From Escherichia coli (GTDB taxonomy: Bacteria > Pseudomonadota > Gammaproteobacteria > Enterobacterales > Enterobacteriaceae): a stretch of DNA of 64,000 nt. Made by a program: the position numbers and the translations under genes. The notes beneath the pieces are model-generated. The model was not told where the DNA came from. It was given only the letters and a program-made list of their open reading frames with translations, and did not search any database. Every line of letters begins with the position of its first letter. Positions within the stretch are counted from its first letter, which is position 1. The stretch is taken from assembly GCF_046105845.1 (NCBI RefSeq), contig NZ_CP151004.1. One strand, 5' to 3'. Of the stretch, positions 5,272 through 62,254 are shown one piece after another.

Positions 5272-5281
5272 TTCCGTTTCT

Positions 5282-6667
5282 CTAGCGAATTGAAAAGCCG
5301 CTGGTTAACACGCAGCGTCGTGAGCGGGCAAAAGTCCGTGCTGACGTTGTCCCTTCTCCGGTCGGTGTTGCAATGGTAAAGGTCGTAAAGCCTTCGCCGC
5401 CGACGCCAATACCCGCCCAGGAGGGGCCGTTTTTGACAAAGATTGAGGTTTGCATAACGCGTGCGGCAAGGTTGAGCCGTGAGACGTTCTGCGAGTGCAT
5501 AATTGCCGTGTGGTGCAAGCCGTCTTCCACTTTCAGCGCCAGGGTGAGAGCGCTATCAAAATCGTTGACCTTCACAATGGGCAGCATTGGCATCAGTTGT
5601 TCACAAGTAACCCAACTATCATTGGCGTCGACAACAGCAATCAGTAGGCGCGGCGCTTTTGCGGGCAAAGGGAGGCCTGCCGCTTCCAGCAAGGCTGATG
5701 GGCTTTTCCCAACCAGTTTTTTGTTGGCGCTACCGTCTGGCAGGCAAATTGCACGCAATTTCTCCGTTTGCTCATAGTTAAGAAGAAGCGCGCCAAAACT
5801 TTGCATCTGCTGAATTAAATACTCTGCCACTGATGCTACGACAATCAGGCTTTTTTCAGCGATACACGGCAGGTTGTAATCAAATGAAGCGCCGTTGATG
5901 ATATCTTCGGCGGCTTTCACAATATCCGCCGTTTCATCGACGATACACGGAGGGTTACCCGCTCCGGCACCAATCACTTTCTTGCCACTTTTCATTCCCA
6001 TGGCGACGATCCCCGGACCGCCGGTAATCGCCAGAACGCTGATTTTAGGGTGCGCCATCATCTGTTCGGTAGCAGCAAAGGTCGGTTCAGATACGGTAAC
6101 GATCAGGTTATGAATGCCACTACAGCGAAACGCGATGTCTTCGATTATGGTAATCAGTTTTAACGAAACGTTTTTGGCTCCCGGGTGTGGACTGAAGTAG
6201 ACGCTATTACCTGCTGCCAGCATGCTGATGCTGTTGTTAATGATGGTTTCCGTGGGGTTGGTGCTTGGCGTGACCGAGCCAATCACCCCAAACGGAGAGT
6301 ATTCAAACAAAACCATGCCACCATCACCGGTCAGTGCTGTGGTGGTTAAATCTTCAATTCCAGGCGTGTTATCAAGTGCCGCTTTGTTTTTTAGGTACTT
6401 ATCTTCTTTATTTCCCATCCCCGTTTCTTTGGCGCTTTCTTCTGCCAGTTCGGTCAGGCGGGGCATTAATTCTTCGCGAATGGCGCTGATAATGGCGCTA
6501 CGGGTTTTAAGCGGGCACTGTTGAAAGCGTAAAAAGGCCTGGTGTGCTGCGCAGACCGCTTCATCAACAGTCTGGAAAATAGCGTTTCTTTGCGCTCGTT
6601 GCGTAGCGGGGGCAAGCTGCTCACGCAGAATATTGCGGATCAGTGTTTCTAATTCAGAGTTATTCAT
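5282..6667 (-). CDS. pduP: PduP CoA-acylating propionaldehyde dehydrogenase
   Basis: 461 aa; begins MNNSELETLIRNILREQL and ends SARTFARSRRCVLTSGFSIR, matching the aldehyde dehydrogenase PduP family. Confidence 0.9.
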   Translation of the reverse strand: MNNSELETLIRNILREQLAPATQRAQRNAIFQTVDEAVCAAHQAFLRFQQCPLKTRSAIISAIREELMPRLTELAEESAKETGMGNKEDKYLKNKAALDNTPGIEDLTTTALTGDGGMVLFEYSPFGVIGSVTPSTNPTETIINNSISMLAAGNSVYFSPHPGAKNVSLKLITIIEDIAFRCSGIHNLIVTVSEPTFAATEQMMAHPKISVLAITGGPGIVAMGMKSGKKVIGAGAGNPPCIVDETADIVKAAEDIINGASFDYNLPCIAEKSLIVVASVAEYLIQQMQSFGALLLNYEQTEKLRAICLPDGSANKKLVGKSPSALLEAAGLPLPAKAPRLLIAVVDANDSWVTCEQLMPMLPIVKVNDFDSALTLALKVEDGLHHTAIMHSQNVSRLNLAARVMQTSIFVKNGPSWAGIGVGGEGFTTFTIATPTGEGTTSARTFARSRRCVLTSGFSIR

Positions 6668-17316: not shown

Positions 17317-17518
17317 CGAAATAATCTGGCAGTTATAAACGTTTATTTTTTTACTGTTTGTGATCTGCTTTCCGAACTTATTAAAAAGTCTCCCGCTTCA
17401 CGGAGGCTTTTGTTATTGTCCTTTGTGCTTCTCGTCAGTAAATCATCAGGGATGATGTGAAGATTAAATGTAAAACAATTGTTTTGCTATAACAATAAAT
17501 TAACTGGGAGGTTTTATC

Positions 17519-18433
17519 ATGATTTCTGCGGCGACACTTAATTCAGAACTCATTAATAAAATCGCGCAGGATTTTGCGCAGGCGACCAGCCTTGCGGTTG
17601 TCGTGGTCAATATTCACGGCGATGAAATTTCCGAGCTGTTTAACTTCACTCCATTTTGTCAGATGATGCGGCAACACCCTCAGCTAAGCACTCGATGTCG
17701 CATGAGCGATCGTTGTGGGGGCTTGGAAGCCTCTAAATCCGATCAGCCTTGTATTTATCGCTGTCATGCCGGATTAACCGATTTCTCTATTCCACTGGTA
17801 ATCGCCGGGCATTTAGTCGGTTTTGTATTGTGCGGGCAAGTTCGTCTGCGTAATGATGATGTCGATTTGGTCGATATTCTGAATGTCGATGATTGCTGGC
17901 AGGCAGATCCCGAATTACTTAATGAATTCCGCAAAGTTCCTGAGATGGATTACTCAAGAGTTATGGCCTCTGCTGATTTGTTGAAGTTGATTGTGGAAAA
18001 TTGCCTCAAAAAACAACTCAATTTTGTGGTTATTAAAGAGAACAAATCTCAGTCAGATTCGGTGCGCCAGACTCGTGCGCCTAATCCCCACGACAATAAA
18101 ATGAAAAAAGCTTTACGCTATATTGATGCGCATTTATCAGACGATTTGCGTCTGGAAGATGTCGCCTCACACGTTTATCTAAGCCCTTATTATTTCAGTA
18201 AGTTATTTAAGAAATACCATGGAATCGGGTTTAATGCGTGGGTAAACCAACAACGGATGGCCAGCGCTCGTGAGTTACTGTGCCATAGTGACTGGAGCAT
18301 CGCCAGCATTGCGCGTAATTTAGGTTTTTCACAAACAAGTTATTTTTGCAAAGTTTTCCGTCAGACTTATCAGGTTACGCCGCAGGTGTATCGACAGCAA
18401 GTGAGTGATAATGCGGCGATGGAAACGGTATAG
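17519..18433 (+). CDS. pocR: PocR, AraC-family activator of pdu/cob genes
   Basis: 304 aa; C-terminal AraC-type HTH region (LRYIDAHLSDDLRLEDVASHVYLSPYYFSKLFK); position after pduF. Confidence 0.9.
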   Translation: MISAATLNSELINKIAQDFAQATSLAVVVVNIHGDEISELFNFTPFCQMMRQHPQLSTRCRMSDRCGGLEASKSDQPCIYRCHAGLTDFSIPLVIAGHLVGFVLCGQVRLRNDDVDLVDILNVDDCWQADPELLNEFRKVPEMDYSRVMASADLLKLIVENCLKKQLNFVVIKENKSQSDSVRQTRAPNPHDNKMKKALRYIDAHLSDDLRLEDVASHVYLSPYYFSKLFKKYHGIGFNAWVNQQRMASARELLCHSDWSIASIARNLGFSQTSYFCKVFRQTYQVTPQVYRQQVSDNAAMETV

Positions 18434-18534
18434 AGTAAATGCCCCAAAAAAAGAGGACGGTTTAAATAAACTCTGCAATGAATAATTAACGTTATTTACC
18501 TGTTATGGGAAAAGTGAAATCAGCTCATAACATA

Positions 18535-18790
18535 CGCTGACAGGTGTGGCACATTTGTGCCTGGGAAGAGGGTGAAAATCCCTCGCAGCCCCCGCTGCTG
18601 TAATGCTGACAAACCCGAAAATGCCACTGATCGCGAGATTGGGAAGGTCGGGAGAGGATGACGCTAAGCCAGAAGACCAGCCAGTCAGTCAATACCAACA
18701 ACTTCGGTGGGAAGTGGGTTGCCCGGAAGCGTCCGGTAGAGTACCGGCGCGTCTTTATACCCCTACCACCCTGAAAGGATCAGGGTATGG
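18535..18790 (+). promoter_or_regulatory. Cobalamin (AdoCbl) riboswitch, leader of the former cbi operon
   Basis: Conserved aptamer core ggtgtggc...gcctgggaagagggtgaaaatccctcgcagcccccgctgctgtaatg...gccactg and B12-box-like taagccagaagaccagcc at 18666-18683; downstream stem accctga/tcagggt can sequester the aagga ribosome-binding site before the ATG at 18787. Confidence 0.8.
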
Positions 18791-18921
18791 CGGCATCATT
18801 TAGTTCTTTCATCGCAGTGCCGACAGGCACCAGGGCTGCACTTAAGGTGTGGCAATCTTGTTTCATGGCTCATCAACCAGACCGCCATTACAGGAAACTA
18901 AGTGGAGGGCGAGAGGCATGA
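18787..18921 (+). pseudogene. 44-codon mini-ORF, possible decayed 5' end of cbiA
   Basis: Starts MAA directly after the riboswitch, as cbiA does in Salmonella, but diverges after a few residues; stop TGA overlaps the next ATG (ATGA). Confidence 0.3.
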
Positions 18922-19355
18922 AAACGATAAAACCCGAATCGATAGCTCTTTTTTGCCTCTTATCTGGAGATGTGGATCTGGCGAAATATCTGGCTGAAAT
19001 ATTGCCAATAACCTGTTTTGTTGGTGAGGACTGGCAGCAAGATTTCCAGCCTCTTGATGGTGGGTCTGTGCAATCGTTATCAGATGTGTATGGCGATTAT
19101 TCAGTGCTGCTATTGATAGCAGCTGAAAGCGAGATATCCGTACCAGAATGGCTCGCTCATTCTGAAGGAACGACGGTAATTGTGATTGCAGAACACAATG
19201 CCCGTTTGCTGACTGGTCCGGCTGGTGGGGCTGTAGCATTGATCCATTATCTGAATGAAATCTGTCATTCCAGAGAAACCGCTGTCAATGACGCATTTTG
19301 TCGTACGTTAACACGAGGAAGTCTGGCTATTCCGCAATGCCATCTTCTTTCGTAA
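18918..19355 (+). CDS. Hypothetical protein, 145 aa, no family recognised
   Basis: ORF with ggaggg ribosome-binding site 8 nt upstream of ATG 18918; start overlaps the stop of the preceding mini-ORF; lies between the riboswitch and cobU. Confidence 0.4.
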   Translation: MKTIKPESIALFCLLSGDVDLAKYLAEILPITCFVGEDWQQDFQPLDGGSVQSLSDVYGDYSVLLLIAAESEISVPEWLAHSEGTTVIVIAEHNARLLTGPAGGAVALIHYLNEICHSRETAVNDAFCRTLTRGSLAIPQCHLLS

Positions 19356-19488
19356 TGGATTGAGAATGCTGGATTTTTAATTATATTACGCGCAGTATTA
19401 ATCGCGTAAATGTTTTGCGGTCAGCAACGGTGGGGGATCCATTGTTCTGTTCAATGAATACCATCATACAATTGAATCAGGAGTCGGT

Positions 19489-20034
19489 ATGATGATTTTG
19501 GTGACAGGTGGAGCACGGAGCGGGAAGAGTCGCCATGCAGAGGCGCTTATTGGGGACTCTTCACAGGTTCTGTATATCGCCACCTCGCAAATCCTTGATG
19601 ATGAGATGGCTGCACGGATAGAACATCATCGGAAAGGCCGCCCGGCGCACTGGCGCACGGTGGAGCGTTGGCAACATCTTGATGAATTAATTCATGCAGA
19701 CATTAACCCGCATGAAGCTGTGTTGCTGGAATGCGTTACCACAATGGTGACTAATCTGTTGTTTGATTATGGCGGAGATAAAGACCCTGATGAATGGGAT
19801 TATCAGGCGATGGAACAGGCAATTAATGCTGAGATTCAGTCGTTGATTGCTGCCTGCCAACGTTGCCCCGCGAAGATTGTATTAGTGACTAACGAAGTGG
19901 GAATGGGGATTGTGCCGGAGAGTCGTCTGGCACGACATTTTCGTGATATTGCCGGGCGGGTAAATCAGCAACTGGCCGCTGCGGCAAATGAAGTGTGGCT
20001 GGTGGTTTCGGGTATTGGAGTAAAAATCAAATGA
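19489..20034 (+). CDS. cobU: CobU adenosylcobinamide kinase / adenosylcobinamide-phosphate guanylyltransferase
   Basis: 181 aa beginning [22 protein letters not shown] (P-loop) and ending [10 protein letters not shown]. Confidence 0.95.
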
Positions 20035-20774
20035 GTAAATTATTTTGGGCGATGCTCTCTTTTATTACGCGTCTGCCTGTGCCGCGTCGCTGGTCCCAGG
20101 GACTGGATTTCGAGCATTATTCTCGCGGTATTATTACTTTTCCTTTAATTGGTTTATTGCTTGGCGCGATTAGCGGGCTGGTCTTCATGGCGTTGCAGGC
20201 ATGGTTTGGCGTACCACTGGCGGCACTGTTTAGCGTGCTGGTGCTGGCGCTGATGACCGGGGGATTCCACCTGGACGGCCTCGCCGATACCTGTGATGGC
20301 GTATTTTCTGCACGTAGCCGCGATCGCATGTTGGAAATCATGCGTGATAGTCGTTTAGGCACCCACGGCGGTCTGGCATTGATTTTTGTTGTACTGGCAA
20401 AGATTCTGGTGTTAAGCGAATTGGCTCTGCGTGGCGAACCGATCCTTGCATCGCTGGCGGCAGCATGCGCGGTTAGCCGCGGGACTGCCGCATTATTGAT
20501 GTATCGTCATCGTTATGCCCGGGAAGAAGGGCTTGGCAATGTGTTCATTGGCAAAATTGATGGGCGACAAACCTGCGTCACACTCGGCTTAGCCGCTATT
20601 TTTGCTGCCGTATTATTGCCGGGTATGCATGGTGTGGCTGCTATGGTGGTGACGATGGTGGCGATTTTCATCCTCGGTCAGCTTCTCAAACGTACGCTGG
20701 GCGGGCAAACCGGCGATACGCTGGGAGCAGCCATAGAGCTTGGTGAACTGGTCTTCCTGCTGGCACTGCTATAA
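20031..20774 (+). CDS. cobS: CobS adenosylcobinamide-GDP ribazoletransferase (cobalamin synthase)
   Basis: Internal start [18 protein letters not shown] overlaps the cobU stop (ATGA); polytopic membrane protein of 247 aa. Confidence 0.95.
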
Positions 20775-20785
20775 AGAGACGTGAC

Positions 20786-21865
20786 ATGCAAACACTTGCC
20801 AATTTACTGAATACGATCCCTGCCATCGATCCTGCCACTATGTCGCGTGCACAACGGCATATTGACGGGTTACTCAAACCTGTTGGTAGCCTGGGAAGGC
20901 TGGAGGCGCTTGGCGTACAACTGGCGGGAATGCCGGGGTTGAATGGCATACCGCATGTGGGCAAAAAAGCGGTACTGGTTATGTGTGCCGATCACGGCGT
21001 CTGGGAGGAAGGGGTCGCTATTTCCCCAAAAGAAGTCACAGCCATTCAGGCTGAAAATATGACCCGCGGAACAACCGGCGTGTGTGTGCTGGCAGCACAA
21101 GCGGGCGCTAACGTCCACGTAATTGATGTTGGTATTGATACTGCTGAGCCTATCCCCGGGCTTATCAACATGCGTGTCGCACGAGGTAGCGGCAATATTG
21201 CTTCAGCTCCGGCAATGAGTCGCCGTCAGGCTGAAACGTTGCTTTTGGACGTCATATGCTATACGCGGGAGCTGGCAAAAAACGGTGTCACGCTGTTTGG
21301 TGTAGGTGAACTGGGGATGGCAAACACGACACCGGCAGCGGCGATAGTGAGCACAATCACTGGCCTGGATCCTGAAGAAGTGGTTGGGATTGGCGCAAAC
21401 CTGCCGACAGATAAACTGGCTAATAAAATTGATGTTGTGCGACGGGCGATTACGTTGAATCAACCAAATCCGCAGGATGGCGTTGATGTCCTGGCAAAAG
21501 TGGGTGGATTTGATTTGGTCGGAATGGCTGGCGTGATGTTAGGCGCTGCGTCCTGCGGTTTACCGGTGTTGCTGGATGGATTTCTTTCTTATGCTGCCGC
21601 GCTCGCAGCCTGCCAGATGTCTCCTGCAATCAAACCGTATCTCATTCCTTCTCACCTGTCGGCAGAAAAAGGGGCGCGTATAGCGCTGTCGCATTTGGGG
21701 CTGGAGCCTTATCTCAATATGGATATGCGTTTAGGTGAGGGAAGTGGCGCAGCTCTGGCGATGCCCATCATCGAAGCTGCCTGTGCGATATACAACAGCA
21801 TGGGCGAACTTGCTGCCAGTAATATTGTTCTACCGGGGAATACGACTTCTGATTTGAACAGTTAA
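20786..21865 (+). CDS. cobT: CobT nicotinate-nucleotide:dimethylbenzimidazole phosphoribosyltransferase
   Basis: 359 aa beginning [40 protein letters not shown]. Confidence 0.95.
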
Positions 21866-22853: not shown

Positions 22854-23014
22854 CATTCAAAACGTCTGGTTTGTCGGTCTGTGTAAGCATTCCGTCATGC
22901 AGAACAGGTTGTTTCGAATCATACAAATGATAATTTTCTTCTCATATGCGCATCTCTTATGAGCATAAACGTTATACTCTTCTGATTTATACATGTTTGC
23001 GGATGACATGATCA

Positions 23015-23992
23015 ATGGAAAAGAGAATGACGAAACAGAATAAAAACAGCCGTTGGCAGGGTTACGATCCTCGTTACATATACTCGCTCGTGGTCAGACG
23101 CTATTTTGCGGATATGAAAACCAAGATTGAGATTGCTGAGGAGCTTGGCGTTTCCCGCTTTAAAGTTGCCAGATTGATCGATGAGGCGATCGAACAGGAT
23201 TACGTGAGGTTTATCTTCCCTAAGCAGCAAGCGATGGATGAAGAAATCGCCAATAATCTACGGAAAAAATTTCATCTGGAAGATGCAATTGTTCTTTCAG
23301 TTGCTGAATCATGGACGACGCAAGAAGAACTCAATCACAAATTGGGTGAAGTCACCGCTGAATATCTTACGCAATCTCTTCATGAAGGTATGAAAGTGGG
23401 GATCGCCTGGGGACGTGTATTATCAAGTACGGTCAGTAAGTTGAGCAAGCTGCCTCCTTTAGACGTTGTGCAGTTATCTGGCGTACATCCGGGGATTGAG
23501 TTTAGTCAAGGGCCAATAGATCTTATTCATAAGATCGCTGCCATTTCGCAGGGAAAAGCGCACCCAATGTACGTGCCGATGTGGGTCGATGACGAAGAGC
23601 TTGCTGCCAGACTGGCAGGTGATCCTGCGGTATTAGATACACAGCAATATTACTCACAGTTGGATGTGGTTATCACCGGGATAGGTGACTGGAAATCAGG
23701 TTCTTCAAGCTTGTGTAAAATATTTCCGGATACCTGGTGCGAAGCTTTGTTTCAACAAGATATCGCTGCGGATGTGTGTATCTCGTTGGTCAGCAGGGAA
23801 GGGAAGATTCTTCATAGTCCTATTGAACGTCTGGGATTTGGCATTTCGACGGATCAACTACAAAAAGCCAAAAAAGTGATTGGTGTCGCCGGAGGGGAAG
23901 AGAAATATGAAGGCATTCTTGCTTCGCTGAAATCTGGACTTTTGAATGTCTTAATTACTGATTTTGATACGGCCATTAAACTTCTGGATTAA
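23015..23992 (+). CDS. SorC/DeoR-type sugar-binding transcriptional regulator
   Basis: 325 aa; N-terminal HTH (KIEIAEELGVSRFKVARLIDEA) and C-terminal sugar-phosphate-binding domain (VGIAWGRVL...VIGVAGGEEK). Confidence 0.8.
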   Translation: MEKRMTKQNKNSRWQGYDPRYIYSLVVRRYFADMKTKIEIAEELGVSRFKVARLIDEAIEQDYVRFIFPKQQAMDEEIANNLRKKFHLEDAIVLSVAESWTTQEELNHKLGEVTAEYLTQSLHEGMKVGIAWGRVLSSTVSKLSKLPPLDVVQLSGVHPGIEFSQGPIDLIHKIAAISQGKAHPMYVPMWVDDEELAARLAGDPAVLDTQQYYSQLDVVITGIGDWKSGSSSLCKIFPDTWCEALFQQDIAADVCISLVSREGKILHSPIERLGFGISTDQLQKAKKVIGVAGGEEKYEGILASLKSGLLNVLITDFDTAIKLLD

Positions 23993-24009
23993 TAGCCGTA
24001 TCTGTGAAG

Positions 24010-24038
24010 AAAGGGCAGTACCGCTGATTCTGCCCTTT
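24010..24038. terminator. Bidirectional hairpin between convergent regulator and PTS IIA gene
   Basis: Inverted repeat aagggcag...ctgccctt followed by tttaattt. Confidence 0.55.
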
Positions 24039-24043
24039 TAATT

Positions 24044-24502
24044 TCAGGATGCTGCGAGCGTATCCTCTACATATTTAGCCACGCGCGTTGCAGGTAAATT
24101 GCGGCAAGTCTCAACAAAGGCGTTATCCTGAAACAGTGTGAATAAACGACGCAATATCGACATATGTTGATCACTGGTGGCAAATGCCAGGTTAAACATA
24201 ATGCTACAATCAACTGTTAAAGCAGCATCTTCCATCTGTCCGAAAGTGACATCATTGGAGAAACGAACAATACTGATGCTGTTTACATTTACCAGCGTGT
24301 AATCGGCATGGGGAATGGCGATACCCTGACCGTTTGCCATCATTAATCCTGTCGGATAGCTTTTTTCACGTTCCAGACAGGCGTCAATGTATTCTGCAGT
24401 GATGTAGCCTTTTTCCAATAATTGCGTACCAGCAAAGGTGATCGCCGTTTGATAGTCGTTGATGCTGTTATCAACATCATTTACCAGAATTTCAAATTTC
24501 AT
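24044..24502 (-). CDS. PTS EIIA component (fructose/mannitol/galactitol type 2 family)
   Basis: 152 aa; conserved histidine context GQGIAIPHADYT typical of EIIA-2 domains. Confidence 0.8.
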   Translation of the reverse strand: MKFEILVNDVDNSINDYQTAITFAGTQLLEKGYITAEYIDACLEREKSYPTGLMMANGQGIAIPHADYTLVNVNSISIVRFSNDVTFGQMEDAALTVDCSIMFNLAFATSDQHMSILRRLFTLFQDNAFVETCRNLPATRVAKYVEDTLAAS

Positions 24503-24512
24503 TGCACACCTG

Positions 24513-24797
24513 TTATTTCAGTATCTCTTCTTTAACTGCAGCGAAAATCTCATCTTCGCCCAGACCAGTCAGTAATCCAGCGCCAACGATGACACGAGTA
24601 GTAATGGCCGGGTTATCGAGTTTGGTCGATGAAACCACCAGGTCATAGCTGTTGAAGGTATCGCTGGTGCATGCCATTAACGAAGATTTATCGACTTGCG
24701 CTTCAATTTTCTCTTCTTTCAGTAAGTCCTGCAGTACAGAGACCATGATGGAAGATGAGGCAATTCCGTTTCCGCAAACTACTAAGATTTTTTTCAT
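24513..24797 (-). CDS. PTS EIIB component (galactitol/lactose-type)
   Basis: 94 aa; N-terminal MKKILVVCGNGIASSS with phosphorylatable cysteine. Confidence 0.8.
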   Translation of the reverse strand: MKKILVVCGNGIASSSIMVSVLQDLLKEEKIEAQVDKSSLMACTSDTFNSYDLVVSSTKLDNPAITTRVIVGAGLLTGLGEDEIFAAVKEEILK

Positions 24798-24820
24798 TTG
24801 ATTATTCCTCTGTAAAAGAT

Positions 24821-26191
24821 TTAAAGCGCTTTTTCTAAATCCGTTTCAATCTGGCGACGTGATTTTTGTTTAATTAAGTATCCAATAGATAACAAAAGGA
24901 TACCTGCCATCACATAGCCAATGATTCCAACATGGCTCAGGGCGGCAAACAGACCAGTAAATGGATTCGCAGACGGGTTAAGCGAAGAGTACATCACGCT
25001 GGCATCCGGGTTTGTACCAAACTTCTGGAAGACTTCGTTGGTAGCCGGTGCCATCCACGATGCAATATACAGACCACCACCGAACAAAATGATCGAGGTC
25101 ACCCAGGTGCGAATAATGTTGCCATTGAAAACAGGCACCATGCAGGCAATGAAAAACACAAACTGAGAGAGGTCACCCAGTGGCATAACGCGGTTGCCGG
25201 GCAAGATCACTGCGAGGATCACAATCACCGGGATCAGTAATAATGCCGGGGCGATAACTGACGGATGACCCACAATCAGGGCAGTGTCCATTCCAACAGT
25301 GATTTGACGATCCGGGAAACGTTTGACCAGTTTTTTGCGTGCCACGTTGGAAAGCGGAACAAGCCCTTCCATCATGATAGAGGTCATACGTGGCAACAGA
25401 AGCATGACTGCAGCCAGATACATCCCTAACTGTAGGCTGGCAATTATGGTGTGGTAGGGGGATTTCCAGCCATAACCACAAAAGCCCAACAAAATACCAA
25501 TAATAAAACCAACCATAGTTGGATCGCCCAGAATGCCAAACCGTTTTTGAATAGTTTCGGCGGTCACATTCAGATTACGGAAGCCTGGGATGCGATCATA
25601 AATCCAGTTGAATGGATAAGCGAAAAGTAAGTAGGTATTGGCAACCGGGTGAGAGATCGCAACACCTTTTGGCAGGTTAAAGAATTTTTCGTTATTTTTA
25701 GCACCGAGATCGGCAGCGATCAGCGCCCAGACATGGAATAGCGCGGCGGTCAATGCGCCATACAGGAAGCTACCAGAATAGACGCCAACAATTGCCCCCA
25801 TTGACGCATTTTGATGAAGGTTGAAAACATCAACGTTAACACAGTCAGTCAGGCGGGCGACCAGCATTGCAATATTTACCGCAACACAGAGGGGAATAAT
25901 GATAGCGCCCATGCTGGAGCCAAATCCCATCACTGCAGTCGCTGCGCCACCAACATCGATGGCACTGAGCGAGGAACCTGTTGCTTCTGCTAATCCGGTG
26001 ACTGCCGGTTGCATTTTTTCCAGCATCAGTTTGATGGTCATGGTTAGCGCAATGAAACCAATGCCGACTTTGATGGCGGAGGAGATACATTCTGAAAGAG
26101 GACGGCCAAGTATCTTCATCAGTACCAGAAAGATGACCGGGATAAATATAAAATTTCCCAGATCGTTTATAAATTGCGTGATCAGTTCCAT
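24821..26191 (-). CDS. PTS EIIC permease, galactitol (GatC) family
   Basis: 456 aa polytopic membrane protein; resembles GatC/SgcC-type EIIC. Confidence 0.8.
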   Translation of the reverse strand: MELITQFINDLGNFIFIPVIFLVLMKILGRPLSECISSAIKVGIGFIALTMTIKLMLEKMQPAVTGLAEATGSSLSAIDVGGAATAVMGFGSSMGAIIIPLCVAVNIAMLVARLTDCVNVDVFNLHQNASMGAIVGVYSGSFLYGALTAALFHVWALIAADLGAKNNEKFFNLPKGVAISHPVANTYLLFAYPFNWIYDRIPGFRNLNVTAETIQKRFGILGDPTMVGFIIGILLGFCGYGWKSPYHTIIASLQLGMYLAAVMLLLPRMTSIMMEGLVPLSNVARKKLVKRFPDRQITVGMDTALIVGHPSVIAPALLLIPVIVILAVILPGNRVMPLGDLSQFVFFIACMVPVFNGNIIRTWVTSIILFGGGLYIASWMAPATNEVFQKFGTNPDASVMYSSLNPSANPFTGLFAALSHVGIIGYVMAGILLLSIGYLIKQKSRRQIETDLEKAL

Positions 26192-26194
26192 ACA

Positions 26195-26731
26195 TTAACC
26201 CTCAGATTTTTCATCATCTGGTCGGAAACCCATATTCCAGCGTACATCAGCGGGCTTAACCAGCAATGCATTATCGTTACGTTCAGCTTCTAGTAAGTTC
26301 TTTTTAGAATTTTCTCTGGCGGTGGTGAAGTCGAATGGGTTATCCAACCATGCATCGACAATCATTTTGCTGTATTCGAGATCGTTGACCCGGCAACCCA
26401 GTCCAATAACTTGTGCGTTATTGCTGAGTCGCGCCCGCTTTGCGGAGTAGGGGTTAGTAACCGCAACGGCTCTTATGCCCCAGTGTTTGTTGATCTGACA
26501 AGTAAAGCCAATGCCAGTCCCACAAATGTAAATTCCCAGACGGCACTCATCGCGTTGAATAATGCCTGCCATTTCGTCGGCTAGACGCGCGAAGTTATTG
26601 ACACCTTGTTCCTTACATGTGACGGGATCGTACACGATCTCCATGTTTTTCTCTTCTATGAGGTATTTTTTTATCTCCTCTTTACGTGCAAAACCTACAT
26701 CATCGCTTGCGATAGCAATCTTCGTTTTCAT
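26195..26731 (-). CDS. RpiB/LacAB-family sugar-phosphate isomerase with C-terminal extension
   Basis: 178 aa; motif GIYICGTGIGFTCQINKHWGIRAVAV resembles the RpiB active-site region; first gene of the minus-strand PTS operon. Confidence 0.75.
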   Translation of the reverse strand: MKTKIAIASDDVGFARKEEIKKYLIEEKNMEIVYDPVTCKEQGVNNFARLADEMAGIIQRDECRLGIYICGTGIGFTCQINKHWGIRAVAVTNPYSAKRARLSNNAQVIGLGCRVNDLEYSKMIVDAWLDNPFDFTTARENSKKNLLEAERNDNALLVKPADVRWNMGFRPDDEKSEG

Positions 26732-27079
26732 TTCATTTTGCCTGTCGTTAAGTAACTAAAGCCAAGTATGCTGTTGGTAAATATTGGTTGTCAATTGAGA
26801 TCTAAATCACAAAATTTATAACTGATTGATTTTTATGATAAAAAAAACCAATAAAAACAAATAAAAAATAAATTAAGCCAATTGAGACAAATTGGGATTG
26901 TACAGTGGCGTTGTAATGAATAATAAAAACTCATTTATTATCAATCGGATATATGGTTTTTGAACTATTGTCTTTATTGGGTTTATTTGTACTTTCCACT
27001 GTTAGTGTTTGTTTTTGTTTGCATCATCTGTGCTATGCTTGGCGTTTTCTAAGATGGGTAATAGATTTCAGGAGGAAGG
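26732..27079. promoter_or_regulatory. AT-rich divergent control region between the minus-strand PTS operon and the DeoR-family regulator gene
   Basis: About 350 bp, very AT-rich, no coding potential, flanked by divergent gene starts. Confidence 0.5.
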
Positions 27080-27835
27080 ATGTATCTGGTTGATGAAAGG
27101 CGAAAGTTAATACTTGAAGACTTAATGTCGGCAGGTACGGTCTATGTCAGTGATCTTGCACGAAAGTATGAAGTAACGTATGAGACCATCAGGAAAGATT
27201 TGACCCATCTTGAACAAAAAGGGCTGCTGATCAAAAGCCATGGTGGGGCGACTTTAAAGCAAAGGGCCATAGAGCATCCCTTTCAGGTCAGGGAAAAAGA
27301 AAATAACTCTTATAAGAAGGCGATAGCTCGTAAAGCGCTTGATTTCATTCCGCCTAATAGTTCGATGATTATCGGTACGGGCAGTACCACTTTTGAGCTG
27401 GCTAACCTGTTATGTATGAAGTCTGGGTTTAAAATCTTCACAGATTCGCTCCCCGTTGCCAGTGTGTTGATTGAATCTGACAATCAGGTTTTTCTCTTTG
27501 GCGGCGAACTGCGTAGAAAGAGTTCCTCAGTGTTTGGGGGGTGGGCGGTATCTATGATCAACGATATACATGTTGATCTCTGTTTCATTGGAACCGACGG
27601 TTTTAGTAACATGACTGGTCCATCGACGCCTTCTTCTTCTGATGCGTTTTTGGATCGCACGATAATTTCGCACTCAGACAAAAAATATATCCTCGGTGAT
27701 TACACCAAGTTTGAGCGCAGCAGTTTGTTTAAGATCTGCGACTGGTCGGAGATCACCGCCCTTATTACCAACGATCATGCCGACAAAGAGGGGATTGCCG
27801 AAGTCGCAAAATACACGTCAGTAATAACCTGTTAG
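27080..27835 (+). CDS. DeoR-family transcriptional regulator
   Basis: 251 aa; N-terminal HTH (VYVSDLARKYEVTYETIRKDLTHLEQKGLL) and C-terminal DeoR sugar-binding domain. Confidence 0.85.
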   Translation: MYLVDERRKLILEDLMSAGTVYVSDLARKYEVTYETIRKDLTHLEQKGLLIKSHGGATLKQRAIEHPFQVREKENNSYKKAIARKALDFIPPNSSMIIGTGSTTFELANLLCMKSGFKIFTDSLPVASVLIESDNQVFLFGGELRRKSSSVFGGWAVSMINDIHVDLCFIGTDGFSNMTGPSTPSSSDAFLDRTIISHSDKKYILGDYTKFERSSLFKICDWSEITALITNDHADKEGIAEVAKYTSVITC

Positions 27836-28010
27836 AACTCACTACGACACGCCTTCTCTCTTCGAATCAGCTTTGCCAAATGTAATCATTTCATAATTAT
27901 CAAGTGAGCATCCATGGCGATGCTTGCTTAGCGCCCTCTATTGAATACATCCTCTACATATTGCCAGTTTCACTTCATTTTTAGCGACGAAATCATTTTT
28001 TGAATCACGA

Positions 28011-28152
28011 TTTGCTCATATGAGCGTAAATAGTGTCGCCATTATGTGATTTTTTGTGATCTGGATTTAATTTCTCAGATCTCGTCATTTGTCCACAGGA
28101 TCGTTGTGCTATAACTGCTCATATGAAGGTTGTTCAATGCTCATGTGAGCAT
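28011..28152. promoter_or_regulatory. Three palindromic operator-like sites upstream of the plus-strand PTS operon
   Basis: tgctcatatgagcg (28013-28026), gctcatatga (28117-28126) and aatgctcatgtgagcatt (28137-28152) share the inverted-repeat core GCTCAT-ATGAGC. Confidence 0.5.
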
Positions 28153-28172
28153 TGGGGGTGAGGGGGAAGGAT

Positions 28173-28616
28173 ATGATATCGATCAGTGTTGCCGATGGTG
28201 CGGGACTACAGAACTACGATGCCGTGCTTGAACATATTTATAACACGCATCGTGAAACGAATACGGTGAAAGAGAGCTGGCTCAATGCTATGCGTAAACG
28301 CGAAGCGGAATATCCGACAGGAATAGAACTGGAAGGTTATTCTATCGCTATACCACACTGTGATAGTGAACATGCGAATCAACCGGCTATTTACATCATC
28401 CGTCTGCCAGACGCAATACCTGTGAACAGGGCTGATGAAGATGGAATATTGTGGGTCAGACTGGTCGTTAATATCATTGTTACGGATCCTGCTGACCAGC
28501 TTCGATTGTTAAAGTCATTATTTAACCATCTCCAAAATGAAGAATTCTACCAAAACTTACTGACACTTCCCGTCGAGGATGCAAAAGCACTTTTTGTATC
28601 CAGGATAATCCAATAG
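28173..28616 (+). CDS. PTS EIIA component (type 2 family)
   Basis: Probable start at second ATG (ggaagga ribosome-binding site); conserved histidine context YSIAIPHCDSE. Confidence 0.8.
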   Translation: MISISVADGAGLQNYDAVLEHIYNTHRETNTVKESWLNAMRKREAEYPTGIELEGYSIAIPHCDSEHANQPAIYIIRLPDAIPVNRADEDGILWVRLVVNIIVTDPADQLRLLKSLFNHLQNEEFYQNLLTLPVEDAKALFVSRIIQ

Positions 28617-28634
28617 TAAAAACTGGAGTTTATT

Positions 28635-28928
28635 ATGATTAATATTCTTGTTGCTTGTGGTAGCGGTGTCGCTACATCTACGCTTGCTGCTGATGAAGTG
28701 AAGTCAGTATGTGCTGAATATGGTATTACGGCATTTAAAATCAACAAATGCAGTATGGCTGAACTTTCTTCTGAGATGGCTCATGCAGATATTGTACTCA
28801 CAACTAATAATTATAAAGGTGATATTGGGAAACCACATATGAGCGTTGCAGGTTTTGTAACGGGTATTAATGAAGGAGCATTACGCAAGAAATTAGGAGA
28901 GTTATTAACTGAATTAGCAAATAGCTAA
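28635..28928 (+). CDS. PTS EIIB component (galactitol-type)
   Basis: 97 aa; MINILVACGSGVATST with phosphorylatable cysteine. Confidence 0.8.
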   Translation: MINILVACGSGVATSTLAADEVKSVCAEYGITAFKINKCSMAELSSEMAHADIVLTTNNYKGDIGKPHMSVAGFVTGINEGALRKKLGELLTELANS

Positions 28929-28948
28929 ACCTGACAGGAATAATAAAA

Positions 28949-30202
28949 ATGGAAATGTTGAAAAATTTAATGGAAACAATCACCGGAATGGGGGCGACTG
29001 CAATACTGCCGCTGGTGATATTTATTTTAGGTCTGGTGTTCAGAATGAAACCAGGTGCCGCGATCAAGTCGGGCATCACCGTCGGTATTGGTTTTATTGG
29101 TTTAGGTTTAGTTGTTGGTTTATTAAATAGTTCATTACAGCCAGCTATCGAGTATTACTCAAAAGTAGGCAGTGGTTTTACGGTTGCAGATATTGGTTGG
29201 CCAGCAGTCGGTGCGGCTGCATGGGTAGCACCTTTTGCCGCATTAGTGATACCAGTTGGCATCGTACTTAACCTGATTCTGGTGCGCCTGAAATTAACCA
29301 AAACGTTAAATGTTGATATCTGGAACTATATGCATTTTTTAGTTCCGGGCGCTCTGGCATATTTTGTGTTCGACAGTTTTATCATCGGCTTCTCTGTCGC
29401 GGTGGCTTTGAGTATTGCGGCCCTGTTTATTGGCGATTTGATTGCGCCCAGATGGCAAAAATATTATGGACTCGAGGGAACAACCTGTACCACGATGATT
29501 CATATCGGCTGGACTCTACCGTTCGCCTGGGTAGTAAATAAAATCATTGATTACATCCCTGGGTTAAATAAGTTAGATGTTGACTTAAACAGTGTGCAAA
29601 AACGCCTGGGTGTCTTTGGTGAACCTGCAATTATCGGTGTTATCGTTGGCGCATTACTCGGAGTTTTAACGAAACAGGCAATTACCACAATTGTTCCCAT
29701 GGCGATGGGGGTTGCTGGTGTAATGGTATTGTTACCTAAAGTGGTCGGTGTGCTGATGGAAGGTCTTAACCCGATTGGGAAAAGTGCCAAAGAAATCATG
29801 CAAAAACAGATGGGTAAAGATGCTGAATTAAACATCGGTATGGATTGTGCACTGGCGTTGGGGGATCCGGCGACGGTCACCGTGACAGTCATTACCATTC
29901 CTTTAACTATGCTATGTGCTCTGGTATTGCCTGATATTAAGATCTTCCCAATTGGCGTATTGATGTCAATTATTTATATGACCACCATGACCGTAATGGC
30001 GAGCAACGGTAACGTGATTCGTTCGATTATCTCGACCTTGTTATTCTGCGTTGTAGTGATGTATTTAGGCGGTTATGTCGCACCAGGGGCAACGCAATTT
30101 TTAGCTGGAGCCGGTGTAGGCTTGCAAGGACAAGGTACTGATTTTGTATTAACCGGCCCGTGGGAAATTTTAACCTATTGGTTGAGCACCGTATTACATT
30201 GA
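28949..30202 (+). CDS. PTS EIIC permease, galactitol (GatC) family
   Basis: 417 aa polytopic membrane protein of GatC/SgcC type. Confidence 0.8.
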   Translation: MEMLKNLMETITGMGATAILPLVIFILGLVFRMKPGAAIKSGITVGIGFIGLGLVVGLLNSSLQPAIEYYSKVGSGFTVADIGWPAVGAAAWVAPFAALVIPVGIVLNLILVRLKLTKTLNVDIWNYMHFLVPGALAYFVFDSFIIGFSVAVALSIAALFIGDLIAPRWQKYYGLEGTTCTTMIHIGWTLPFAWVVNKIIDYIPGLNKLDVDLNSVQKRLGVFGEPAIIGVIVGALLGVLTKQAITTIVPMAMGVAGVMVLLPKVVGVLMEGLNPIGKSAKEIMQKQMGKDAELNIGMDCALALGDPATVTVTVITIPLTMLCALVLPDIKIFPIGVLMSIIYMTTMTVMASNGNVIRSIISTLLFCVVVMYLGGYVAPGATQFLAGAGVGLQGQGTDFVLTGPWEILTYWLSTVLH

Positions 30203-30224
30203 TTTAATAATCTGGAGTTTTAAC

Positions 30225-30869
30225 ATGGCAAAAATATTACCTTCTATATTTGGCGCGGATATTTTACGCCTGAAAGATGAAATTCATTTTCTGGAAGAGG
30301 AACAAACCGAAATATTGCACGTTGATTTAATGGATGGCACTTACGTCAGTAATATTGCCTTTGGCCCAAATCAAATTGCAGCAATGAAAAAAGCCAGTTC
30401 GATGATCTTTGACGTGCATATGATGCTGGCAAATCCTGAGCGACATATTGATGATGTAATCAATACCGGGGCGGAGATGATTTCTGTACATTATGAGTCG
30501 ACGCCACATGTGCATTATATTATTCAAAAAATCAAAAAAGCGGGGCGCAAAGCAGGTGTTGTGCTTAATCCTGGGACACCTGAATCTGTCATCGAGTATT
30601 TATTAGATGATATTGATTATATATTGTTAATGACAATTAATCCGGGGCAACTAGGCCAGACATTTATTCATAAAAGCCTGGAGAAAATCCGTAACACCAA
30701 AAAATTGATATCTGGCAGAGATATTCAAATTGAAGTGGATGGTGGCGTTAATCTTGATAATGTGAAACAAGTTAAAGAAGCGGGGGCTGACCTTATTGTT
30801 GTTGGCGGTGCATTATTTAACAAACAGCCTCATGAAAGTTATCAGGCATTAAAAATCGCTGTTCAGTGA
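30225..30869 (+). CDS. Ribulose-phosphate 3-epimerase family protein (ketose-phosphate 3-epimerase)
   Basis: 214 aa; N-terminal LPSIFGADILRLKDE matches the RPE SILSAD signature region; metal-binding His/Asp residues present. Confidence 0.8.
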   Translation: MAKILPSIFGADILRLKDEIHFLEEEQTEILHVDLMDGTYVSNIAFGPNQIAAMKKASSMIFDVHMMLANPERHIDDVINTGAEMISVHYESTPHVHYIIQKIKKAGRKAGVVLNPGTPESVIEYLLDDIDYILLMTINPGQLGQTFIHKSLEKIRNTKKLISGRDIQIEVDGGVNLDNVKQVKEAGADLIVVGGALFNKQPHESYQALKIAVQ

Positions 30870-30964
30870 TCATAATCTAAAAATTTTACATCCAGCTAAG
30901 TGAGGTTTTCGATTTCATATCGGGAGGAAAACCCCAACTAAAAAGTCTTTAATGGAGAAAAGTA

Positions 30965-31717
30965 ATGAGTAATTTTGCAGGTAAAGTGGTTTTAGTTACC
31001 GGAGGTGCTCACGGTATTGGCAAAGGGATAGCTAAACAATTTGCTGATCGTGGTGCACATACTGTTATTGTTGACTATAACGAAGAGAACGGCAAGGCCA
31101 CTGCAGCAGAGTTAACTTTTGGCGATGTTAAATCGCTGTTTGTTAAAACAGATGTCTCCGATCCACAGGCATTAGTGGATGTACGGGAAAAAGTATTTGC
31201 TACCTTTGGTCGTATTGATGTGTTGATATTAAATGCCGGTGTGGCATTTGCCAATAAAGTTAACAATATTTCTTTTGAGGAATGGAATAAGACTATCGCA
31301 ATTAACTTATCGGGATTATTTAATACCGTTAAGGCATTTTATGATGATTTCCTGACAAATAAGGGATCTATTGTTTATATCTCATCGGGATCAGCGCTTT
31401 CGGGGACTGGGGGCGGCGTGAGCTATCCTGCCAGTAAAGCGGGAGGCGAAGGATTGATTCGTGGTCTGGCAAAAGAGTTAGGACCAAAAGGCGTAAATGT
31501 TAATGCGATTGCTCCCCGCTTAATAGACACCGGAGATATGATGCGGGTCAACTATCCAACACAAGCCGATTTAGACGCTGTCCTGGAAAAAATACCCGTC
31601 CGTCGTCTGGGGACTATCGATGATGTGGCTAACCTGGCAATATTTTTGGCAGATAAAGATAACTCTTATATTCAGGGACAAACCATTTTAATGGATGGTG
31701 GCCGGACTATTGCTTAA
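30965..31717 (+). CDS. Short-chain dehydrogenase/reductase (SDR) family oxidoreductase
   Basis: 250 aa; Rossmann motif VTGGAHGIGKG and catalytic YPASK. Confidence 0.85.
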   Translation: MSNFAGKVVLVTGGAHGIGKGIAKQFADRGAHTVIVDYNEENGKATAAELTFGDVKSLFVKTDVSDPQALVDVREKVFATFGRIDVLILNAGVAFANKVNNISFEEWNKTIAINLSGLFNTVKAFYDDFLTNKGSIVYISSGSALSGTGGGVSYPASKAGGEGLIRGLAKELGPKGVNVNAIAPRLIDTGDMMRVNYPTQADLDAVLEKIPVRRLGTIDDVANLAIFLADKDNSYIQGQTILMDGGRTIA

Positions 31718-31732
31718 AAAGGGAGAGGAAAA

Positions 31733-32293
31733 ATGAGTGTTCAGGAAAATACTCTTAATATTCTGCATGAATTAGAGAGTAATGCACTGAAGATTGACGA
31801 TGCTCAGGCTGCACAGTTTATTTCGCAAATCAGAAATGCCCGGCATATTTTTTTGCAGGGAGCTGGGCGCAGTGGCATTGCTATTCGCGCTTTTGCTAAT
31901 CGCTTGCTGCATTTAGGTTTTTCAGTAAGCGTTGTGGGAGAAATATCATCACCGCATACCCAACCTGGAGATCTATTAATTATTGGGTCAGGCAGTGGTG
32001 AAACTACCAGTTTAAAAAGTCTGGCACAAAAAGCAGTTGATAGCGGAGTAAACGTAGCTCTGGTAACTATGAAAGCAGATTCGACGATCGGTAAATTAGC
32101 TCAATCTGTGTTGGTACTACCAGGAAGTGTGAAAGACGATAACAATCGTGTTGCAGGCGCTTTCGCACAACCAATGGGATCGGCTTTTGAGCAGCTCTGC
32201 TTTATTACTTATGATGCAATTGTTCTGGAGTTGATGTCTGAACTGGGTGAAAGCAGTGCCACAATGTTTACCCGACACGCTGATCTGGAATGA
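31733..32293 (+). CDS. SIS-domain sugar-phosphate isomerase (6-phospho-3-hexuloisomerase-like)
   Basis: 186 aa; SIS-domain features (FLQGAGRSG ... LLIIGSGSGETT) and size typical of PHI-type isomerases. Confidence 0.7.
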   Translation: MSVQENTLNILHELESNALKIDDAQAAQFISQIRNARHIFLQGAGRSGIAIRAFANRLLHLGFSVSVVGEISSPHTQPGDLLIIGSGSGETTSLKSLAQKAVDSGVNVALVTMKADSTIGKLAQSVLVLPGSVKDDNNRVAGAFAQPMGSAFEQLCFITYDAIVLELMSELGESSATMFTRHADLE

Positions 32294-32317
32294 CCAAAGA
32301 GTTGGTAATTAGAAAGT

Positions 32318-32346
32318 AAAAAGCCTGCTTGAAAGCAGGCTTTTTT
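32318..32346. terminator. Bidirectional rho-independent terminator between the SIS gene and tRNA-Asn
   Basis: aaaagcctgcttgaaagcaggctttttt: perfect hairpin flanked by A-run and T-run. Confidence 0.8.
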
Positions 32347-32351
32347 GAATT

Positions 32352-32427
32352 TGGCTCCTCTGACTGGACTCGAACCAGTGACATACGGATTAACAGTCCG
32401 CCGTTCTACCGACTGAACTACAGAGGA
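32352..32427 (-). tRNA. asnV: tRNA-Asn (anticodon GUU)
   Basis: Reverse complement is the 76-nt E. coli tRNA-Asn TCCTCTGTAGTTCAGTCGGTAGAACGGCGGACTGTTAATCCG...GAGGAGCCA. Confidence 0.95.
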
Positions 32428-52974: not shown

Positions 52975-53064
52975 GGAGAGATGCCGGAGCGGCTGAACGG
53001 ACCGGTCTCGAAAACCGGAGTAGGGGCAACTCTACCGGGGGTTCAAATCCCCCTCTCTCCGCCA
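52975..53064 (+). tRNA. serU: tRNA-Ser (anticodon CGA), long variable arm
   Basis: GGAGAGATGCCGGAGCGGCTGAACGGACCGGTCTCGAAAACCGG...CCCCCTCTCTCCGCCA: class II tRNA with CGA anticodon and encoded CCA. Confidence 0.9.
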
Positions 53065-61965: not shown

Positions 61966-62055
61966 ATGATTGTTGCGCCAAACGGCTGGTGTGATCACGC
62001 GCACATTAATGAAGACATAAAAAAAGCCGGCATCATGCCGGCCCAAAAAATATAA
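61966..62055 (+). CDS. Candidate 29-codon small ORF with strong Shine-Dalgarno
   Basis: aggagg at 61955-61960, 5-nt spacer, ATG at 61966; encodes MIVAPNGWCDHAHINEDIKKAGIMPAQKI; contains hairpin gccggcatcatgccggc at 62027-62043. Confidence 0.3.
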   Translation: MIVAPNGWCDHAHINEDIKKAGIMPAQKI

Positions 62056-62254
62056 ACAAGACGATAAAAGGCTAATAACGGAGGCATCATGACACAGAAT
62101 AATAAAAAGGTATAATTGTAATCAGTGCTAATATATTGATTGAATGAATTAATAAAGCCGATATCAAAGATAAATAAAATCGCTCAAAACGATTTATCCT
62201 GTACTCACTGCCGTTGCGCAAAAATTATCTATTTGTTCAAAAAATGATTGAGTC

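Follow-up and report, generated by a model that had tools for sequence, protein, structure and literature searches.

Escherichia coli is usually described as having a single B12 (cobalamin) riboswitch, at btuB. In Salmonella, the leader in front of cbiA is 468 nt long and needs the first cbiA codons, and cobinamide induction is known in K-12. The Salmonella cob operon is listed as riboswitch-regulated (PMC5282855), and Rho termination is a common outcome at translational riboswitches of E. coli (PMC5499598). Here we describe a cobalamin riboswitch in a 64,000-nt stretch of E. coli DNA (RefSeq assembly GCF_046105845.1, contig NZ_CP151004.1), hereafter the window, which lies downstream of pocR and is followed by the remnants of a deleted cbi operon and then by cobUST. 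Sequence comparison identifies it as the orthologue of the Salmonella leader, with an aptamer and an expression platform that are under purifying selection in Escherichia, and the relic reading frames behind it are preserved. We think it probable that, at the old cbiA start, it still works as a translational OFF switch, which would act on the relic frames directly and on cobUST perhaps by polarity.

Among the described systems, the closest is the Salmonella enterica cob (cbiA) leader, which occupies the same site after pocR and whose aptamer is 82% identical (109 bits here, 107 bits there, with the same covariance model). That leader heads 20 genes (cbiA-cobT), whereas in the window cbiA-cbiF and most of cbiG-cbiP are deleted, and it is preceded by a segment of about 230 nt between pocR and the aptamer, with a promoter-like site, that is missing from the window. 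The E. coli btuB riboswitch has the same aptamer family, and with it and the Rho-coupled thiM and lysC riboswitches (PMC5499598, PMC11162775) the element would share a predicted start-site occlusion and a secondary loss of mRNA. Those riboswitches control an intact gene directly, whereas here relic frames come first and functional genes follow 700 nt further on, behind a promoter-like site of their own. In the ppe2 B12 riboswitch of Mycobacterium tuberculosis (PMC11260477), a short translated leader frame is coupled to the gene by termination-reinitiation, which may be compared with the overlap of the two relic frames described below (ORF44 and cbiG′), although the riboswitch subclass and the organism are different and the leader frame is not the relic of a deleted biosynthetic gene. 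Finally, riboswitches are found before cobT/cobUST-type genes, as at Sporomusa ovata cobT (PMC9600662). If the riboswitch of the window acted on cobUST, the likeness would be that complete corrinoids repress late assembly genes. Those riboswitches stand immediately before the gene, whereas the arrangement here is secondary, brought about by deletion and with relics in between.

An orthologue of the Salmonella cob leader

The following features make up the 5′ part of the locus.

17519-18433, plus strand: pocR, AraC-family regulator of pdu/cob (NCBIfam NF047788 PocR, 554 bits against a cutoff of 500; annotated in strain XJ6.1 by the Prokaryotic Genome Annotation Pipeline, PGAP)
18501-18530, plus strand: conserved hairpin GTTATGGG...CTCATAAC just 5′ of the aptamer (read from the sequence)
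18525-18699, plus strand: cobalamin riboswitch aptamer of the adenosylcobalamin (AdoCbl) type (RF00174 covariance model)
18696-18721, plus strand: invariant platform block CAACAACTTCGGTGGGAAGTGGGTTG, identical in 16 enterobacterial leaders, intact cbi operons included
18733-18747, plus strand: variable central platform hairpin CCGGTA-GAG-TACCGG (fold prediction)
18760-18790, plus strand: predicted hairpin CCCCTACCACCCTGA-AAGGA-TCAGGGTATGG sequestering the ribosome-binding site and start codon (centroid fold; consensus of 16 leaders)

The initial annotation, made from the sequence alone, had recognised a well-preserved B12 aptamer and B12 box after pocR, at the position of the Salmonella cbi leader, and had proposed a covariance-model scan. 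Such a scan bears this out, since RF00174 (Cobalamin) matches 18525-18699 on the plus strand with 109.4 bits (E 1.7e-26), the gathering score being 31.5, and the match covers the complete model (positions 1-189). The B12 box AGCCAGAAGACCAGCC occupies 18667-18682, and of the 48 model pairs present, 41 are standard pairs. With its B12 box and core helices, the segment is by sequence an intact, genuine RF00174 cobalamin riboswitch aptamer, and membership of this family predicts that it binds adenosylcobalamin or a related corrinoid. RefSeq/PGAP genomes already carry a "riboswitch" feature at the same spot; the RNA element itself is thus annotated and not categorically new, but its context differs in that it heads gene relics and not genes. 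A full-text literature search found no paper on this E. coli riboswitch or its conservation. The less expected part is a genus-deep conservation after loss of the operon, with open relic frames, in two genera, which the readings offered below explain only partly.

A PocR scan with one genome per species gave 80 loci for comparison. The Salmonella pocR-cbiA leader is 82% identical to window positions 18521-18795 and collinear with them through the cbiA ATG at 18787, so that the alignment suggested in the initial annotation also upholds the proposed position, and Citrobacter leaders are 81-85% identical. With blastn, the identity to about 40 enterobacterial leaders is 81-85%, and the alignments end 9 nt into cbiA (ATG + 9). 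In the intact operons of S. enterica diarizonae and C. sedlakii the order is pocR-cbiABCDETFGHJKLMNQOP-cobUST-ldtA. Their pduF-pocR and cobUST-ldtA flanks are also those of the window, which is therefore a deletion derivative of the intact arrangement. Judged by collinear homology and by its neighbours, the element is orthologous to the cob (cbiA) leader of Salmonella.

The expression platform consists of the 87 nt from the end of the aptamer to the ATG at 18787. Two of its blocks, CAACAACTTCGGTGGGAAGTGGGTTG and CCCCTACCACCCTGA..AGGATCAGGGTATGGCGGC, are invariant in 16 enterics, and the central hairpin is kept with other sequence in Salmonella, Citrobacter and Klebsiella (ACAGTCGAAAGACTG, GCGGTCGCAGGACCG; read from the alignment). 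Both the Shine-Dalgarno (SD) sequence AAGGA (18775-18779) and the ATG lie inside the 18760-18790 hairpin, the pairs of which are near-invariant in the 16 leaders and thus without support from covariation. The GGTGG of the 18696-18721 block complements the CCACC of this start-site hairpin, which makes it a candidate anti-sequestering (enhancer) element. In the Salmonella leader, the platform blocks, the SD/AUG hairpin and the start context ATGGCGGCA are identical. As modelled, with a hairpin that occludes the SD and AUG and a putative alternative partner for it, the structure is that of a translational OFF platform, and by homology with the Salmonella leader the mechanism would be the same.

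Relic frames behind the riboswitch

Downstream of the platform we distinguish the following features.

18787-18921, plus strand: ORF44, a relic leader frame, its first ~15 codons decayed cbiA and the remainder of untraceable origin
18918-19355, plus strand: cbiG′, 145-codon relic of the CbiG N-terminus (NF004463, 68 bits against a cutoff of 546; PGAP coding sequence)
19336-19488, plus strand: cbiP 3′ relic, the last ~150 nt (about 50 codons), forming the spacer before cobU (blastx/blastn; alignment)
19360-19387, plus strand: candidate sigma-70-like promoter TTGAGA-16-TATATT in the cbiP relic (10/12 consensus positions; consensus match only)
19489-20034, plus strand: cobU (NF004469, 246 bits for CobU; PGAP)
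20031-20774, plus strand: cobS (PGAP)
20786-21865, plus strand: cobT (PGAP)

The first ATG after the riboswitch opens, as had been noted at the outset, a 44-codon frame that begins MAA like cbiA and then diverges from it. Its first ~15 residues are still CbiA-like (MAASFSSFIAVPTG in ORF44, MAARHHAFILAGTG in CbiA). A family profile search of ORF44 returned no CbiA domain, and codons ~16-44 show no significant similarity to the 3′ end of cbiF or to any Cbi protein. A YRK match of ORF44 to the CbiF C-terminus was rejected because it is out of register, and an intrinsic terminator call at 18835-18853 was rejected on account of its weak G-T-rich stem, its poor T tract and a sequence that differs in other species.

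The initial annotation had seen only a decayed cbiA start behind the riboswitch, and in this it fell short, since the TGA stop of ORF44 overlaps the ATG of cbiG′ at 18918 (ATGA) and both frames are open in 7/7 Escherichia sequences. Residues 1-112 of cbiG′ correspond to CbiG residues 1-119 minus a 7-residue deletion, with 42-46% identity to real CbiG, and the NF004463 match covers positions 1-125 of the 351 in the profile. Residues 113-145, the tail, are junction sequence, and at 18902-18906 cbiG′ has a GGAGG Shine-Dalgarno sequence. A Pfam scan of cbiG′ gave no match to CbiG_N, CbiG_mid or CbiG_C, and the conserved CbiG motifs GATGIAVR..APL..DK, DPAVVVIDE and PVITTATD are missing. Being neither full-length nor endowed with the domains and motifs, cbiG′ is, from its sequence, a relic of CbiG and not a cobalt-precorrin-5A hydrolase enzyme. 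An AlphaFold model of it (predicted local distance difference test score 73) has a generic alpha/beta fold, for which a Foldseek search of the PDB found weak Rossmann-like matches only and none to CbiG 3EEQ. The cbiP relic has a collinear blastx match to CbiP residues 454-478, aligns with the Salmonella and C. sedlakii cbiP 3′ ends, and is retained in K-12 according to its annotation.

The riboswitch had been called an orphan, with the cbiA-to-cbiP block absent. The biosynthetic block is indeed mostly deleted, but the cbiA start, the CbiG N-terminus (18918-19355) and the cbiP end (~19336-19488) remain downstream, followed by cobUST. Since these cbi relics are found at the site, the Escherichia ancestor must have had a complete cbi operon here, which was lost by internal deletions. 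This loss bears on the old loss-and-reacquisition model for cob/pdu in enteric bacteria.

Conservation in Escherichia

The window comes from a strain with the propanediol-utilisation (pdu) locus. Its positions 18430-19490 are 99.4% identical to the pdu+ E. coli strain XJ6.1, and the riboswitch was found in 644/5426 complete E. coli genomes, so that about 12% of them carry a second B12 riboswitch next to pdu. The pdu locus has been linked to gut colonisation and to inflammation-associated strains. The remaining genomes retain downstream parts only. In K-12, IS5 is followed by the final 144 nt of cbiG′ and then by the cbiP relic and cobUST, and in other E. coli genomes pduV is joined to mid-cbiG′. 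The layout of the window recurs, with 85-90% identity, in E. whittamii, E. marmotae, E. albertii and two further Escherichia species representatives. Because the layout is common to these species, the deletions predate the diversification of the genus.

The riboswitch might be a dead relic, orphaned only recently, not yet decayed and without any function today. In favour of this, its original target genes are deleted, the relic frames are 17-22% diverged, and cbiG′ has lost the CbiG motifs and any Pfam match. The age of the deletions argues against this explanation, as they are older than the divergence of E. coli, E. albertii, E. marmotae and E. whittamii, and since then the flanking non-coding DNA has come to differ by 26-30% in pairwise comparisons, against 2-11% for the aptamer and platform. 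Compared with the other Escherichia species, the window is 93-95% identical in the aptamer, with no insertions or deletions (indels), and 91-95% in the platform, with 90-92% in pocR, 88-90% in cobU, 79-84% in cbiG′ and 73-82% in ORF44. Differing sites amount to 5-7% in the aptamer and platform, 17-22% in the relic frames and 28-39% at fourfold sites of pocR (Fisher P 1e-5 to 1e-13). In a 30-nt sliding profile, a conserved block with sharp edges stands out at 18494-18793, from the 5′ hairpin to the start codon, the mean pairwise difference dropping at 18494 from the 0.26-0.30 of the flanking non-coding DNA to 0.04-0.10. The Escherichia copies score 105-113 bits with RF00174 against 107 for Salmonella, which they thus equal or exceed, and the substitutions between species in the aptamer include one double compensatory change (TA to AT) as well as pair restorations. 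In the 644 E. coli genomes, copies of the riboswitch are 98.5-100% identical, whereas the full-length relic-frame matches among those listed have 96.6-98.7% identity. By these comparisons the aptamer and platform are under purifying selection and form the most conserved stretch of the locus, which is not decaying. The divergence statistics, in Escherichia and in Scandinavium (below), where the element is likewise conserved, already contradict a dead relic, and we consider this explanation very improbable.

The reading frames are preserved as well. ORF44 has exactly 44 codons and the ATGA overlap in 7/7 Escherichia sequences despite 18-27% nucleotide divergence, and cbiG′ is open in all Escherichia lineages, with 144-145 codons and, as its only indel, one of 3 nt that keeps the frame. 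When the observed substitutions were distributed randomly, a frame free of selection remained open with a probability, per lineage, of 0.09-0.20 in the case of ORF44 and of 0.03-0.05 in that of cbiG′. Codons 4-44 of ORF44 have no codon-position bias (P 0.8), nor does the cbiG′ tail (P 0.9). For Escherichia cbiG′ 1-112, the ratio of nonsynonymous to synonymous substitution rates (dN/dS) is 0.40 in frame vs 0.77 and 1.0 in the other two frames, and the variable sites number 38, 27 and 55 at codon positions 1, 2 and 3 (P 0.007). These figures point to a weak but real protein-level constraint on the CbiG-like part. A riboswitch can thus survive the loss of its operon for a time that exceeds the age of a genus, while the fragments behind it are kept translatable but free to drift.

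Three entries of the comparison stand apart. In Escherichia sp. MOD1-EC7003, cbiG keeps the place that it has in intact operons, about 6 kb past cbiA, and PocR groups with Klebsiella and not with Escherichia, so that either the genome is misnamed or the locus is foreign. A contig of a Citrobacter metagenome-assembled genome has 99% amino-acid identity to the window PocR and 98% identity to the pocR-cobU DNA, and a PocR fragment encoded on a 383-nt contig of a Streptomyces assembly shares 99% identity with the window PocR. Both look like mis-binning or contamination of public assemblies.

Parallel loci in Scandinavium and Hafnia

A similar architecture was found in four lineages that we refer to as Scandinavium, comprising the Enterobacteriaceae genome RIT691 and three related loci, two of them named Scandinavium and one from a sequencing-run assembly. 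In them pdu-pduF-pocR is followed, after a 48-nt gap, by a Cobalamin riboswitch (102.6-103.4 bits) and then by a single frame in which a cbiA start, a linker and CbiG residues 3-124 are fused in frame. The fusion frame is open in 4/4 lineages, with 179 codons in three of them, and has a 12-nt in-frame deletion and a later stop in the fourth (L093). It is followed by nac and cbl, and cobUST is absent there. The aptamer and platform have 2-5% differing sites in 5/6 pairs, against 8-23% for the frame and 14-43% at fourfold sites. The remaining pair, L059 and L092, is a mosaic and has to be discounted: pocR and the riboswitch are nearly identical (1/272 aptamer and platform sites) while the adjacent frame is 19% diverged, which implies a recombination breakpoint at about the start codon. 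In the CbiG-like part, dN/dS is 0.32 in frame vs 1.1 and 1.8 out of frame, with a codon-position bias (P 0.009).

On the PocR tree Escherichia stands beside Citrobacter, and Scandinavium lies outside the group of Citrobacter, Klebsiella, Salmonella and Escherichia, so that the two are not sisters, and the neighbours of both have intact operons. The shared architecture would reflect either independent deletions or an old transfer. The linkers of Escherichia and Scandinavium cannot be aligned, and the breakpoints speak for neither a shared nor an independent origin of the deletions.

Hafnia paralvei (four loci) may be a third, clearly separate case of retention of the riboswitch together with cbiG. 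Here pocR is followed by a riboswitch whose platform is of the terminator type. Next come a 118-codon frame and cbiG, which is intact; other cbi genes are absent. The 118-codon frame joins a cbiA-like start to the last 85 codons of cbiF, and it appears to overlap the start of cbiG. The content further downstream varies in Hafnia, and in one strain we noted an OLD-family ATPase/TOPRIM gene and a UvrD-like helicase, a Gabija-like pair.

In at least two lineages, Escherichia and Scandinavium, which have lost de novo B12 synthesis and kept pdu, the riboswitch would have been kept together with a translated part of cbiG, which a stop-start overlap in the one and an in-frame fusion in the other join to the cbiA start under riboswitch control. 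We put forward only tentatively, and with some doubt, that the CbiG relic is a B12-regulated small protein with a function of its own, for which the riboswitch has been re-used. If so, the candidate roles would include the handling of salvaged corrinoids or a link to pdu.

Mechanism and relation to cobUST

The reading that we favour, a translational OFF switch at the old cbiA start, can be set out as a series of steps. The ancestral pocR-cbiA...cbiP-cobUST locus lost cbiA-cbiF and cbiG-cbiP by deletion, leaving the riboswitch, which would still sense adenosylcobalamin. With the ligand bound, the platform hairpin would bury the SD sequence and the old cbiA AUG at 18787, and translation of ORF44 would stop. 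The ATGA overlap and the preserved frame suggest that ORF44 and cbiG′ are translationally coupled, and through this overlap translation of the CbiG relic would stop too, or in Scandinavium through the in-frame fusion. In Escherichia, the roughly 570 nt of untranslated RNA that result would probably lower read-through into cobUST, by Rho-dependent polarity or mRNA decay, and this polarity would sit atop a constitutive promoter just upstream of cobU.

Several observations weigh against this reading. The signal of codon position in cbiG′ is weak and could partly be a leftover of ancestral codon composition, and with its own strong GGAGG the frame may be translated independently of ORF44. A sustained excess of C over G of the kind seen at Rho utilisation (rut) sites was not found anywhere in 18787-19355. 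The cobU gene has a promoter-like site of its own (19360-19387); among Escherichia, its -35 element is altered only in E. albertii (TTGATA), and its -10 element is conserved in E. coli alone. K-12, like most E. coli, has cobUST but no riboswitch. At the 5′ end, the window lacks a counterpart of the ~230 nt found after pocR in Salmonella and Citrobacter, which in Salmonella include a promoter-like site, and no sigma-70 consensus was found in the 91-nt gap between pocR and the aptamer.

The genes cobUST serve nucleotide-loop assembly and cobinamide salvage and have a dN/dS of 0.03-0.14. That they lie about 700 bp downstream on the same strand, as the initial annotation pointed out, proved correct: the cobU ATG (19489) is 702 nt past the ATG at 18787, and a terminator scan found no convincing intrinsic terminator between the riboswitch and cobU. 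The riboswitch could have been kept mainly or only to gate cobUST, B12 repressing the salvage genes by polarity over the untranslated relics. Open relic frames would be expected if premature stops caused constitutive polarity, and ORF44 and the cbiG′ tail are without amino-acid constraint, as such a role would allow. The logic is also sensible, since the riboswitch in front of Sporomusa ovata cobT discriminates against cobinamide, and for the btuB aptamer of E. coli the binding of cobinamide is about 8000-fold weaker than that of cobalamin (PMC9600662). Gating of cobUST is plausible. It cannot be the whole reason for retention, because Scandinavium keeps pocR, the riboswitch (2-5% divergence) and an open cbiA′-cbiG′ frame with nac-cbl and not cobUST downstream. 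The promoter-like site at cobU, the expression of cobUST without the riboswitch in most E. coli and the lack of a rut-like skew also count against it.

E. albertii is a further case. In three loci of this species (locus coordinates 4435-5877) cobT has been lost by deletion and cobU has become a pseudogene, with gaps of 148 nt, several stops and TTG in place of ATG, yet the riboswitch (112.8 bits) and both relic frames are intact, though cobS is intact too and strongly constrained (dN/dS 0.03). We rejected E. albertii as a natural knockout of the cobUST target, since with cobS still under such constraint it is not a clean one. The E. albertii cobS has a dS of 1.0-1.4 to all other Escherichia, against about 0.45 for the neighbouring pocR, which suggests a replaced or foreign allele. 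Taken together, we find it rather doubtful that cobUST gating was the main or only ground for keeping the riboswitch.

Transcription and the upstream neighbours

On the plus strand the order is pduF, pocR, riboswitch, with 91 nt from the pocR stop (18433) to the riboswitch start. A stem like the 18501-18530 hairpin also occurs in the Salmonella and Citrobacter leaders. The promoter-like site of Salmonella, TTGTCA-16-TAAAAT, lies about 475 nt upstream of cbiA within the ~230-nt segment after pocR. Because this segment is absent here, we consider that the riboswitch may be transcribed by read-through from pocR. A terminator scan of the plus strand found no terminator-like site between pocR and the riboswitch. 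Homology of the first 47 nt after pocR with the Salmonella/Citrobacter promoter region was rejected, as nothing rose above shuffles. On the opposite (minus) strand, a match to the enterobacterial small RNA (sRNA) STnc230 (Rfam, 74.8 bits) was noted at 17375-17458, between pduF and pocR, and it is found at the same place in Salmonella and other Escherichia loci.

These neighbours raise another explanation, in which the riboswitch serves pocR and pdu: it would be transcribed by pocR read-through, and the 3′ end of the pduF-pocR mRNA, or its stability, would be altered by the ligand-bound aptamer or by the translation state of the relic frame. What accompanies the riboswitch constantly in both genera is pdu-pduF-pocR on its upstream side and not cobUST. 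After pocR, Escherichia has a gap of 91 nt and Scandinavium one of 48 nt, without a promoter or terminator consensus, where Salmonella has about 320 nt, and among complete E. coli genomes the intact riboswitch was seen only beside pocR and was lost in the pdu-deletion forms sampled. Such co-occurrence may be mere adjacency, and the explanation leaves the open relic frames and the coding constraint on cbiG′ unaccounted for. We know of no mechanism for a riboswitch that lies 3′ of its target and on the same strand. In Listeria, a riboswitch target is AspocR. There, the B12 riboswitch Rli55 controls a regulator of B12-dependent catabolism, according to work cited in PMC5282855. A role for pocR and pdu is in our judgement unlikely; if true, it would tie expression of the propanediol pathway to the B12 supply in bacteria unable to make B12.

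A riboswitch that has outlasted its operon in this way offers a natural system for asking what a riboswitch needs downstream of it, whether relic frames may serve as relays to distal genes and whether wrecks of genes may turn into new small proteins.

Other features of the window

Between ldtA and the first tRNA-Asn gene the window has about 9.4 kb (22854-32351), whereas in XJ6.1 tRNA-Asn stands directly after ldtA. This segment encodes DeoR- and AgaR-family regulators, galactitol-family phosphotransferase system (PTS) components IIA and IIC, an RpiB-like isomerase, a ribulose-phosphate 3-epimerase, a short-chain dehydrogenase/reductase (SDR) family dehydrogenase and a 6-phospho-3-hexuloisomerase, and it looks like a sugar-utilisation island beside the tRNA-Asn gene. 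Four identical tRNA-Asn(GTT) genes are located at 32352, 34760, 36584 and 51908, and a tRNA-Ser(CGA) gene at 52975-53064. The Hfq-binding sRNA rseX was found at 62019-62108 (99 bits).

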